Sequence record: PP856269
Reading direction: 5' to 3' (one strand)
Length of the DNA stretch: 40,299 nucleotides
DNA from: Escherichia phage UFJF_EcSW4
This document shows, piece after piece, positions 22,232 to 24,623 of this stretch (within the stretch, counting starts at the first letter, position 1; every line of letters begins with the position of its first letter). Both the position numbers and the translations under genes were made by a program. The notes under the pieces were generated by a model. The model ran no database searches. It saw only the letters and a list, made by a program, of their open reading frames with translations, and was not told the DNA's origin.

Positions 22232-22254
22232 ACTAAACTATCACTATAGGGAGA
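22232..22254 (+). promoter_or_regulatory. Phage RNAP promoter (phi10-position; full TATAGGGAGA initiation region)
   Basis: ACTAAACTATCACTATAGGGAGACC; +1 at 22249; the closest match to a strong class III promoter. Confidence 0.85.
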
Positions 22255-22356
22255 CCAAGAGAAAGACTCAAGGTTTCCCTATTACTTCAGTCCATACGGA
22301 TTGGGCGTACAGTAAGTAATAAACTTTATCTTTCAATTGAATAGGAGAATTATCAT

Positions 22357-23406
22357 ATGGCAAACGTTCCGGGTCAGAAAGTTGGTACAGACCAAGGTAA
22401 AGGCAAATCTGGTTCCGACGCTCTGGCGTTGTTCCTGAAGGTCTTTGCTGGCGAAGTCCTGACCGCATTCACTCGCCGCTCTGTAACTGCTGACAAGCAT
22501 ATTGTCCGCACCATTCAGAACGGTAAGTCTGCTCAGTTCCCGGTCATGGGTCGCACCTCTGGTGTGTATCTGGCTCCTGGTGAGCGACTGTCCGATAAGC
22601 GTAAAGGTATCAAACATACCGAGAAAGTGATTACCATTGACGGTCTGCTGACTGCCGATGTGATGATTTTCGACATTGAAGACGCGATGAACCACTATGA
22701 CGTGGCTGGCGAGTACTCCAACCAGTTGGGCGAAGCTCTGGCTATCGCTGCCGATGGTGCGGTACTGGCTGAGATGGCCATTCTGTGTAACCTACCGGCT
22801 GCATCTGATGAAAACATCGCTGGTCTTGGCAAAGCGTCTGTGCTGGAAGTTGGTACTAAAGCCAACCTGAACACTCCGGCTAAGCTGGGTGAAGCAATCA
22901 TCGGTCAACTAACCATTGCTCGTGCGAAGCTGACATCCAACTACGTTCCTGCTGGCGACCGTTACTTCTACACCACGCCGGACAACTACTCTGCAATCCT
23001 CGCGGCTCTAATGCCGAACGCTGCTAACTATGCTGCGCTGATTGACCCAGAGACTGGTAACATCCGTAACGTAATGGGCTTCGTTGTGGTTGAAGTTCCT
23101 CACCTTACTCAGGGCGGCGCTGGTGAGACTCGTGGTGACGATGGTATCTCCATTGCTTCTGGTCAGAAACACGCATTCCCAGCGACTTCTAGCGCTACCG
23201 TTAAGGTTGCTCTGGACAACGTTGTGGGCCTGTTCTCTCACCGTTCTGCTGTAGGTACTGTTAAGCTGCGTGACTTGGCGCTGGAACGTGACCGTGACGT
23301 AGATGCTCAGGGCGACCTGATTGTTGGTAAGTACGCTATGGGTCACGGCGGTCTGCGTCCAGAAGCGGCAGGAGCACTGGTTTTCACAGCGGCGCCAGCG
23401 GTTTAA
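22357..23406 (+). CDS. 10: Major capsid protein (10A form)
   Basis: LALFLKVF.GEVLTAF, SAQFPV.GRT, KHTEKVITIDGLLTADV, EDAMNHYDV, AALMPNAANYAALIDPE, NVMGF.VVEVPHLT, AVGTVKLRDLALER, KYAMGHGGLRPEAAGA match T7 gp10A. Confidence 0.97.
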   Translation: MANVPGQKVGTDQGKGKSGSDALALFLKVFAGEVLTAFTRRSVTADKHIVRTIQNGKSAQFPVMGRTSGVYLAPGERLSDKRKGIKHTEKVITIDGLLTADVMIFDIEDAMNHYDVAGEYSNQLGEALAIAADGAVLAEMAILCNLPAASDENIAGLGKASVLEVGTKANLNTPAKLGEAIIGQLTIARAKLTSNYVPAGDRYFYTTPDNYSAILAALMPNAANYAALIDPETGNIRNVMGFVVVEVPHLTQGGAGETRGDDGISIASGQKHAFPATSSATVKVALDNVVGLFSHRSAVGTVKLRDLALERDRDVDAQGDLIVGKYAMGHGGLRPEAAGALVFTAAPAV

Positions 23407-23669
23407 CGACCTTTAAGGCCCTCTCTACAGAGGGTCCTACCTTAGAGACGTACAGTTCTACGGTGGGGACCAGCCTGAAGGTTGACTTCCCTGAGCTTTC
23501 AGATGTGACCGACTGGTCGCTGCTTGATGTTACTACGCCTGATGGTGTTAGTTACTCCCGTAGAACCAACAGTCTCTACTTCAAGGCCACCTCTGGCGTG
23601 GAAGGTCTAGTGATTGTTGAGTATGACGGTTCGCCTGTGCGTTCCTTCAACGTATCTTTCACAAACTAA
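22357..23669 (+). CDS. 10: Predicted minor capsid protein (10B-type), made by a -1 ribosomal frameshift near 23379-23385 (GGTTTTC)
   Basis: The -1 frame is open from 23331 to 23669, overlapping the last 25 codons of 10A; GGTTTTC lies 8 codons before the 10A stop, and the T7 10A C-terminus has the same ...VVF motif; gives a roughly 95-aa extension. Not computed beyond reading the frames. Confidence 0.45.
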
Positions 23670-23673
23670 TTGA

Positions 23674-23713
23674 AACCCCTTGGGTGCCTTCGGGTGCTTG
23701 AGGGGTTTTTTTG
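23674..23713 (+). terminator. Tphi-like transcription terminator
   Basis: AACCCCT tgggtgccttcgggtgcttg AGGGGTT then TTTTTTG; same architecture and location (after the capsid gene) as T7 Tphi. Confidence 0.8.
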
Positions 23714-23727
23714 CTTAAGGAGGGACT

Positions 23728-23817
23728 ATGGTCCTTATTTACACAGGGTTAGCACTATTCGTCTTATTCTGGGCGTACCTTCTGTCCAGCTCACCGTCTA
23801 GTGCCTATGACCGTTAA
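23728..23817 (+). CDS. Possible 29-aa hydrophobic peptide between Tphi and gene 11
   Basis: AAGGAGGG then ATG at spacing 5; MVLIYTGLALFVLFWAYLLSSSPSSAYDR; very short, may be spurious. Confidence 0.2.
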   Translation: MVLIYTGLALFVLFWAYLLSSSPSSAYDR

Positions 23818-23829
23818 GGAGTAAAACCT

Positions 23830-24396
23830 ATGGCTCAATACATTCCACTGAATGCTAACGATGACTTAGATGCCATCAACGATATGTTAGCAGCTATCGG
23901 TGAACCAGCAGTCCTACAGCTTGATGAAGGCAATGCTGACGTCTCGAATGCTCAACGCATCCTGCATCGTGTCAATCGTCAGGTCCAAGCTAAGGGATGG
24001 AACTTTAACATTAATGAAGCTGCTGTCCTGACACCTGATGTCCAAGACAACAGGATTCGATTCCTGCCGTCATACCTTCGTGTAATGACTGCCGGGGCCA
24101 CCAGCTACTACAGCAACATGGGTGGATACCTGTACGACCTGTCCACTCAGTCAACCACTTTCACCGACCCTATAACGGTAGAGCTTGTTGAGATGAAACC
24201 GTTCTCTGAGATGCCTGTGGTATTCAGGGATTACATCGTTACCAAGGCCAGCCGTGAGTTCAACGCTAAGTTCTTCGGTAGCCCAGAGTCTGAACTGTAC
24301 CTTCGTGAGCAGGAAGCAGAACTCTATCAGCAGGTCATGGAATACGAGATGGACACTGGTCGCTACAACATGATGTCCGACATCGGGAGGGACTAA
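23830..24396 (+). CDS. 11: Tail tubular protein A
   Basis: INDMLAAIGEP, NAQRILHRVNRQVQAKGWNFNI, GGYLYDLSTQS, FRDYIVTKASREFNAKFFG, MEYEMD match T7 gp11. Confidence 0.95.
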   Translation: MAQYIPLNANDDLDAINDMLAAIGEPAVLQLDEGNADVSNAQRILHRVNRQVQAKGWNFNINEAAVLTPDVQDNRIRFLPSYLRVMTAGATSYYSNMGGYLYDLSTQSTTFTDPITVELVEMKPFSEMPVVFRDYIVTKASREFNAKFFGSPESELYLREQEAELYQQVMEYEMDTGRYNMMSDIGRD

Positions 24397-24623
24397 TGGC
24401 TAGTCACAACCTGAAGATTCACCGCCAACACTTTGGTCCGGTACAACTAGGTCTAAAGACAGCAGAGCTGAGACTTAACGACCGTGACTTTAAGGTTGGC
24501 GACTGGCTTATCCTGAATGAGTGGGACAACGGGTATACTGGACAACAGGTAGCACGTAAGGTTGTCCACATTGATGACGTTGGTGACATCGCTGAGGGAT
24601 ACGTCCTAATGAGTATGATTTAA
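24396..24623 (+). CDS. DUF3850/ASCH-like small protein inserted between tail tubular genes
   Basis: 75 aa; H.LKIHRQHF.....GLKTAELRLNDRDFKVGDWLILNEW...YTG...GYVLMS fits the DUF3850 (ASCH/PUA-like) pattern as I recall it; ATG overlaps the gp11 stop (TAATG) with GGGAGGG upstream. Confidence 0.6.
   Translation: MASHNLKIHRQHFGPVQLGLKTAELRLNDRDFKVGDWLILNEWDNGYTGQQVARKVVHIDDVGDIAEGYVLMSMI

Follow-up and report, generated by a model that had tools for sequence, protein, structure and literature searches.

Gene 10 of Escherichia phage UFJF_EcSW4 (sequence record PP856269; the window is the whole 40,299-nt stretch analysed here, numbered from its first letter) is best explained as the source of two capsid proteins: the major capsid protein 10A and a minor protein, 10B, which would arise by a −1 ribosomal frameshift shortly before the 10A stop codon and display a predicted immunoglobulin-like (Ig-like) domain on its C-terminal extension, with an RNA fold downstream of the slip site as the proposed stimulator of the shift. 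As a whole, we give this explanation a probability of roughly 0.88. UFJF_EcSW4 is a Kayfunavirus, a K1F-like relative of T7 with a complete T7-like genome, and its region 22300–23720 shares 97.3% identity with Escherichia phage Peacock and ~96% with many other K1F-like phages. The 10A/10B frameshift, as predicted in a sequence-only reading of the window, is correct and already known, since Peacock and the Citrobacter phage CR8 carry the same joined coding sequence (CDS) and T7 and K1F the same heptamer; for this genome it is a matter of annotation. Two results go further than that prediction, namely the identification of the tail as a predicted Ig-like domain of novel sequence and a candidate long-range stimulator of the shift.

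Gene 10A (22357–23406, plus strand; taken from the open reading frame (ORF) list) encodes a 0-frame product of 349 amino acids (36.4 kDa) that matches the Pfam family PF21703 (Gp10A-like, E = 9e-105) and the PDB capsid chains 9vvq, 7y23 and 2xvr, all from solved T7-like capsids. The slippery heptamer G_GUU_UUC, the predicted −1 shift site, lies at 23379–23385 (plus strand) and was recognised from its sequence and its identity with T7 and K1F. In the 0 frame it is read as cuG GUU UUC ACA, and six sense codons separate its UUC from the 10A stop (23404–23406), so that GUU is the eighth codon ahead of that stop, exactly where the sequence-only reading had placed it. That reading had also described a ...VVF context as in T7; the local context is in fact ...ALVF, the heptamer itself being the same as that of T7. 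The −1 frame is shut upstream by TAA at 23328–23330 and is open over 23331–23669 (112 sense codons followed by the stop TAA at 23667–23669), so translation bears out the earlier coordinates, as it does the 25-codon overlap with the end of 10A, with the stop counted. The −1-frame CDS of the 10B extension (23385–23669, plus strand), delimited by translation, homology and codon bias, comprises 94 amino acids (HSGASG...NVSFTN, following Phe343) and TAA, close to the ~95 residues anticipated. Full-length 10B, join(22357..23385, 23385..23669), would thus have 343 + 94 = 437 amino acids and a computed mass of 45.9 kDa, in agreement with the ~46-kDa capsid species that had been forecast. At the predicted junction ...GALVF is followed directly by HSGASGLTTFK, and the trans-frame tryptic peptide predicted from the 10B translation is YAMGHGGLRPEAAGALVFHSGASGLTTFK. 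A T-phi-like intrinsic terminator (23672–23716, plus strand; terminator scan), with a 17-bp stem, CCCC in its 5' arm and a U tract, has its stem beginning 3 nt past the 10B stop and is near-invariant in all clades of aligned relatives, CCCC included.

Taken alone, the heptamer and the open −1 frame are not beyond chance. GGTTTTC occurs three times in the genome against 3.7 expected, and the 87 codons past the 10A stop remain open in 0.7% of dinucleotide shuffles; long open frames by themselves are poor coding evidence in this genome, because its minus strand, which is gene-free in T7-like phages, shows 21 stretches of 112 or more codons that contain no stop. We therefore drew significance from conservation among relatives. 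A tblastn search with the 94-residue tail retrieved 454 phage records with identities from 99% down to 42%, the genera including Kayfunavirus, Przondovirus (K11 and KP32-like Klebsiella phages), Caroctavirus CR8, Pektosvirus PP47 and Ningirsuvirus Cornix. We fetched 97 loci representing at least five genera, each with a slip site and a homologous tail, and in every one (97/97) the tail lies in the −1 frame of 10A, unbroken from xGTTTTC, and stops a few bases ahead of a T-phi-like terminator (also 97/97). The length of the linker varies among clades in multiples of three only, the frame with the heptamer being kept. The heptamer is identical in T7, K1F, CR8 and K11 and occurs as AGTTTTC in PP47 and CGTTTTC in Cornix, and GTTTTCA is unchanged in 22 of 22 aligned sequences. 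Minimum numbers of changes at codon positions 1/2/3 of the −1 frame are 42/36/109 across the domain and 16/15/29 across the 19 codons from the 10A stop to a GTG at 23463, and 19–20 residues of the extension are invariant across homologues. An open −1 frame that is fortuitous or decaying, and yields no product, would be in keeping with the abundance of equally long open stretches in this genome, with the chance-level frequency of the heptamer and with a deletion within the frame in one relative (locus L027, described below). Amino acid conservation down to 42% identity over five genera, with the invariant residues just mentioned, the codon-position bias and a confident fold prediction all speak against this idea, which is already contradicted by the conservation data and which we consider scarcely credible.

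Sequence comparison indicates that the extension evolves as a −1-frame coding sequence without a conserved start or Shine-Dalgarno (SD) sequence of its own, and this pattern bears on whether the tail is translated as a separate small protein. Most GenBank records other than those of CR8 and Peacock split 10B into a capsid gene followed by a 'hypothetical protein', and PHROG 7473 and the protein-database homologues are such short ORF calls, in keeping with a free 68-residue protein made from an independent ORF at 23463–23669 that starts at GTG 23463 or at another internal codon. The SD duplex at this GTG, however, reaches only −2.9 kcal/mol, compared with −7 to −13 kcal/mol for neighbouring genes; CR8, K11 and PP47 have no start codon at this position; and database ORF calls for tail homologues begin at five different alignment columns. 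In addition, beta-strand 1 of the predicted domain is encoded upstream of GTG 23463, and the 19 codons preceding it are third-position-biased and stay in frame with the heptamer despite indels. We consider an independent gene very improbable, and the earlier suggestion that the ORF 23463–23669 is not one is upheld by its unconserved start, its weak SD sequence and the position of strand 1.

Slightly less probable still is termination-reinitiation (translational coupling) at the 10A stop, from which a free protein of ~87 residues would result. The clade of HC12, MBBL139 and L025 has the sequence TAATG, whose −1-frame ATG shares bases with the 10A stop, and gene callers place the start there, but UFJF_EcSW4 (TAACG) and most relatives carry TAACG, TAAGC or TGAAG, none of which holds a start codon. 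There is no ATG, GTG or TTG in the −1 frame over 23331–23462 of UFJF_EcSW4, and it is the heptamer that is conserved. Because TAATG permits coupled reinitiation, the tail of the HC12 clade could also arise as a free protein; the motif lies at positions ~1510–1516 of locus L012 (HC12) and occurs also in L013 and L025. Interpretation of the tail as part of a 10B capsid fusion made by frameshifting is therefore, on comparative grounds, supported for this phage. Two further candidates near the slip site were set aside. An SD-like AGGAG at 23370–23374, 4 nt upstream of the heptamer, was considered as a stimulator; it is probably incidental, because it is confined to UFJF_EcSW4 and Peacock, other relatives having AGGCG, GGGTG or TGGTG at this position. 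Transcriptional slippage on the T4 run was discounted, as by established knowledge the run is too short.

The frameshift interpretation agrees closely with known systems. In T7, ~10% of translations yield 10B through a −1 shift on G_GUU_UUC (PMC1635266; PMC5009743), and PMC5009743 lists G_GU as the variant of the shift site found in T7 gene 10. The T7 10A/10B system (Condron, Atkins and Gesteland 1991; summarised in PMC5009743 and PMC1635266) involves the same gene, the same heptamer and the same −1 direction, with the heptamer a few codons ahead of the 10A stop and the 10B stop just before the T-phi terminator; it differs in its tail, which adds 53 amino acids of low-complexity or helical character that have no sequence relationship to the extension described here. 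K1F gene 10b, from the type species of Kayfunavirus, shares the heptamer and its flanking codons, whereas its tail is short and T7-type (48 amino acids), with no Ig-like domain; a K1F g10b::gfp fusion is incorporated into virions, giving fluorescent phage (PMC6277420). Closest are CR8, whose joined 10B CDS has the same heptamer, an annotated −1 frameshift and a homologous extension (51% identity), and the minor capsid protein of Peacock, with the same heptamer, an extension of ~98% identity (92/94 residues) and a CDS joined by similarity to CR8. In neither does anything essential differ from UFJF_EcSW4, and both records are silent on how the tail folds and on any RNA stimulator. The GenBank notes for CR8 read 'predicted translation by a -1 internal frameshift' and 'matches in mass spectrometry analysis'. 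Truncated 10B frames were also observed in loci L130 and L138.

Several points weigh against the frameshift interpretation or the importance of its product. Frameshifting in UFJF_EcSW4 and its efficiency are inferred here from sequence alone, and the heptamer is a weak, non-canonical slip site. The mass spectrometry note for CR8 says nothing of extension-specific peptides, and the CR8 genome announcement mentions neither 10B nor mass spectrometry. Finally, locus L027 (IMGVR_UViG_2974604219, positions 1655–1700, corresponding to ~23549–23706 of the window) has a natural deletion of ~160 nt that leaves only the N-terminal half of the Ig-like domain and little of the terminator stem, and joins the truncated tail in frame to a small hydrophobic ORF, which suggests either that the domain (and the terminator) is dispensable or that the assembly is faulty.

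An AlphaFold2 model of the extension (m96e3784ddb88), built on 20 homologues, has a mean predicted local distance difference test (pLDDT) score of 81 and divides the extension into a disordered and a folded part. Codons 23385–23441 (plus strand) correspond to a flexible linker (extension residues 1–19, ~18 amino acids), in which residues 1–16 are predicted to be disordered with pLDDT <50, and codons 23442–23666 (plus strand) to residues 20–94, modelled at pLDDT ~90 as a seven-strand Ig-like beta-sandwich. The predicted seven strands in two sheets, a domain length within ~75–90 residues and a C-terminal position on a structural protein are the features of Ig-like phage decorations. By sequence the domain is less easily placed. 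Neither the UFJF_EcSW4 tail nor that of K11 matches any Pfam family at E ≤ 1, Big_2 (PF02368) included, and no PDB sequence match reaches into the tail; the extension does match PHROG 7473 (E = 3e-36), which is annotated as 'unknown function'. The same Pfam comparison finds Big_2 in the T3 tail at E = 4e-10 and nothing in the T7 and K1F tails. The resemblance to T3 gp10B is that there, too, ribosomes shift to the −1 frame near the gene 10 terminus and so put an Ig-like domain on a fraction of the capsid subunits (PMC5009743), and the differences lie in the T3 slip site, CCC_AAA_G, and in the domain, which is Big_2 in T3 and without a Pfam family in UFJF_EcSW4. On the structural model, the tail is thus a sequence-novel Ig-like domain and a third class of 10B tail, and it follows from the Pfam and sequence comparisons that, in the T7 group, a single conserved frameshift platform carries 10B tails of at least three unrelated kinds. 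Such diversity fits a published view in which Ig-like modules are acquired out of frame and frameshifting then rescues them (PMC5009743).

Structure prediction downstream of the slip site, which the sequence-only reading had offered as a check, gave three co-varying helices spread over ~215 nt. A local stem-loop or pseudoknot 5–9 nt past the heptamer was rejected: the 85-nt local fold scores z = −1.5, and relatives share no conserved structure at this distance. The three helices, P1, P2 and P3, are all on the plus strand. P1, the candidate closing helix, pairs a 5' arm at 23390–23402 (inverted repeat I3), whose first pair lies 5 nt after the heptamer, with a 3' arm at 23589–23601, encoding the predicted variable loop T69–E73 of the Ig-like domain, and forms 11 bp at −20.0 kcal/mol by RNAduplex. 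P2 is a hairpin at 23411–23447 (23411–23424 × 23429–23447), just after the 10A stop, with a core of 23419–23424 × 23429–23434 and the loop CUAC. A hairpin with differing sequence is found at this position in every clade, and comparison of K11 with RCIP0069 reveals two compensatory pairs. P3, a long internal stem (5' arm 23443–23467, inverted repeat I1; 3' arm 23555–23578), was detected by RNAduplex, as an inverted repeat and in the cognate scan described below, and has 19 bp at −28.6 kcal/mol, of which the outer 7 bp compete with the base of P2.

Evidence for these helices comes from comparison between clades. RNAalifold applied to 22 sequences proposed a long-range helix at alignment columns 15–19 × 264–268, with four pair types at one position. 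Independently of alignment register, we scanned all 4547 pairs of 22-nt windows in six clade representatives, scoring the RNAduplex energy of arms from the same genome against that of arms from different genomes (cognate scan). The top three clusters were P2 (−6.1 kcal/mol), P1 (−5.9 kcal/mol) and P3 (−5.0 kcal/mol), in a distribution with a standard deviation of 1.15 kcal/mol, and P1, with its partner ~205 nt downstream, had the strongest cognate energy (−17.4). When clade labels were deranged, the values of P1 and P2 were reached nowhere in the scan (0/265 for each). A second, non-overlapping set of representatives placed the same three clusters on top, the P1 value being reached by 3/265 derangements. 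As a negative control, six clades whose tails are T7-type were scanned in the same way and gave no signal (51/265); the scan therefore does not yield signals by default.

In fixed alignment columns, the proportion of P1 cells that pair is 80%, compared with 64% in shuffles. Covariation scores 0.335 vs 0.102, a value as high being found in 0 of 500 shuffles and all slid controls being lower. Among K11-clade sequences, those with C in the 5' arm of P1 have G opposite it in seven of seven cases, while U faces G or A (Fisher p = 4e-4, uncorrected for phylogeny). In all clades, the first P1 pair falls at +3 to +7 relative to the heptamer. On folding +1 to ~+228, P1 is part of the unconstrained minimum free energy (MFE) structure of 5 of 11 sequences (HC12, EV136_1, CR8, K11 and Cornix), and enforcing it in UFJF_EcSW4 costs +0.6 kcal/mol. 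Both arms appear free to co-vary, because the 3' arm encodes the predicted variable loop 69–73 and the 5' arm lies in the poorly constrained overlap of 10A and linker.

A number of results count against P1–P3 as a conserved fold with a role in frameshifting. In the first set of representatives the P3 value is reached by 14/265 derangements, and enforcing P1 costs 3.7–5.1 kcal/mol in Peacock, EcL30g and PP47 (maximum +5.1, in Peacock). In UFJF_EcSW4 itself, the 5' arm of P1 has a rival partner at 23507–23524 that pairs more strongly (−26.7 kcal/mol) and wins the MFE of the 351-nt fold. Clade representatives were few (six), and the data that revealed the helices also served to test them. The fold could, moreover, serve mRNA stability or termination instead. 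As a conserved element in its own right, the pairing with 23507–23524 (the VTDWS codons) was rejected, being lost in close relatives such as U8, Dev2 and L017. No Rfam family reaches threshold for the RNA fold.

We propose P1–P3 as the frameshift stimulator, a function suggested by their position only. The candidate resembles the IS911 three-way junction and the T7 long-range effect (PMC5009743) in its multi-helix form, in a closing stem ~5 nt from the slip site and in a distal arm ~200 nt away, and differs from both in that it is not homologous to those stimulators. In T7, the CCCC of the terminator has been implicated in frameshifting, and an effect of sequence >200 nt downstream is unexplained (PMC5009743). 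The distal element of T7 thus lies in the terminator, whereas in UFJF_EcSW4 the co-varying partner lies inside the coding region ~205 nt downstream. The long-range helix of the T7 type was itself rejected as a model, the T7 GGGGG (+16 to +20) and the GGUGGC/GCCACC pair being unconserved in T7 relatives. The GGGGG of T7 (locus L008) could pair with the terminator CCCC; its close relatives (L109–L121) show GGGAG, AAGGG or GGAAG.

We give nearly even odds to a real frameshift in which P1–P3 play no stimulatory part, the heptamer alone or the terminator setting the efficiency and the fold serving mRNA stability, terminator function or ribosome traffic. The distal element implicated in T7 is, as noted, the terminator CCCC, and the same terminator sequence is invariant here; T7-type tails have no co-varying long-range helix, and the MFE of UFJF_EcSW4 favours another pairing. 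Set against this are the 5' arm of P1, which begins 3–7 nt past the heptamer in every clade, the usual spacer of −1 stimulators, and the fact that P1 is among only three co-varying helices of the region. That a three-way-junction RNA of ~215 nt, closed across ~205 nt by P1 through pairing of the 13 nt next to the slip site with codons for a predicted surface loop of the Ig-like domain, drives the −1 shift in this large T7-like group is accordingly a tentative proposal, to which we assign clearly less than an even chance. The same proposal includes the possibility that the fold limits the 10B:10A ratio by itself, since only frameshifted ribosomes would cross and melt its distal arm, and that the same logic might explain the >200-nt dependence in T7. 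The terminator with its CCCC may also contribute to shifting.

Under the preferred explanation, most ribosomes translating gene 10 would terminate at 23404–23406 and release the major capsid protein 10A, while a minority would shift by −1 at G_GUU_UUC, where tRNA-Phe would leave UUC and pair with UUU instead, would read CAC at 23385 and would continue to the TAA at 23667–23669. The shift would be stimulated by the ~215-nt RNA domain, in which the closing helix P1 encloses the hairpin P2 and the long stem P3. The resulting minor capsid protein 10B would consist of 343 residues of 10A, a linker of ~18 residues and an Ig-like beta-sandwich of 75 residues, and because the whole HK97-fold body is kept, it should co-assemble into the shell with the Ig-like domain outside. 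By analogy with other phage Ig-like decorations, the domain on the virion may act as a weak accessory adhesion module; we infer both its location on the virion and this role.

For annotation, the correct product would be a capsid subunit with an exposed Ig-like domain, in place of the split records now found. This bears on phage display, on the engineering of therapy phages (K1F-type g10b fusions) and on ideas of how phages adhere to host or mucosal glycans. The RNA fold, if confirmed, would provide a testable, covariation-supported model for a distant element that boosts a weak heptamer in the T7 group.

Several features in the neighbourhood of gene 10 were also observed. Upstream, ~105 nt before the gene, a sequence resembling a phage RNA polymerase promoter, CACTATAGGGAGA, lies at ~22240–22252 (plus strand) and is taken as the expected phi10 promoter. 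Between the terminator and gene 11, a hydrophobic ORF of 29 amino acids, MVLIYTGLALFVLFWAYLLSSSPSSAYDR, at 23728–23817 (plus strand) has an SD sequence, UAAGGAGGG, whose duplex of −12.6 kcal/mol is the strongest among the starts scored in the neighbourhood; the ORF has a homologue in L027, is unannotated in U8 and HC12, and its ~100-nt segment is absent from Peacock. A second ORF, of 75 amino acids (24396–24623, plus strand), lies between genes 11 and 12, where T7 has none and where EV136_1 has a positional counterpart of the same length annotated as DUF3850.

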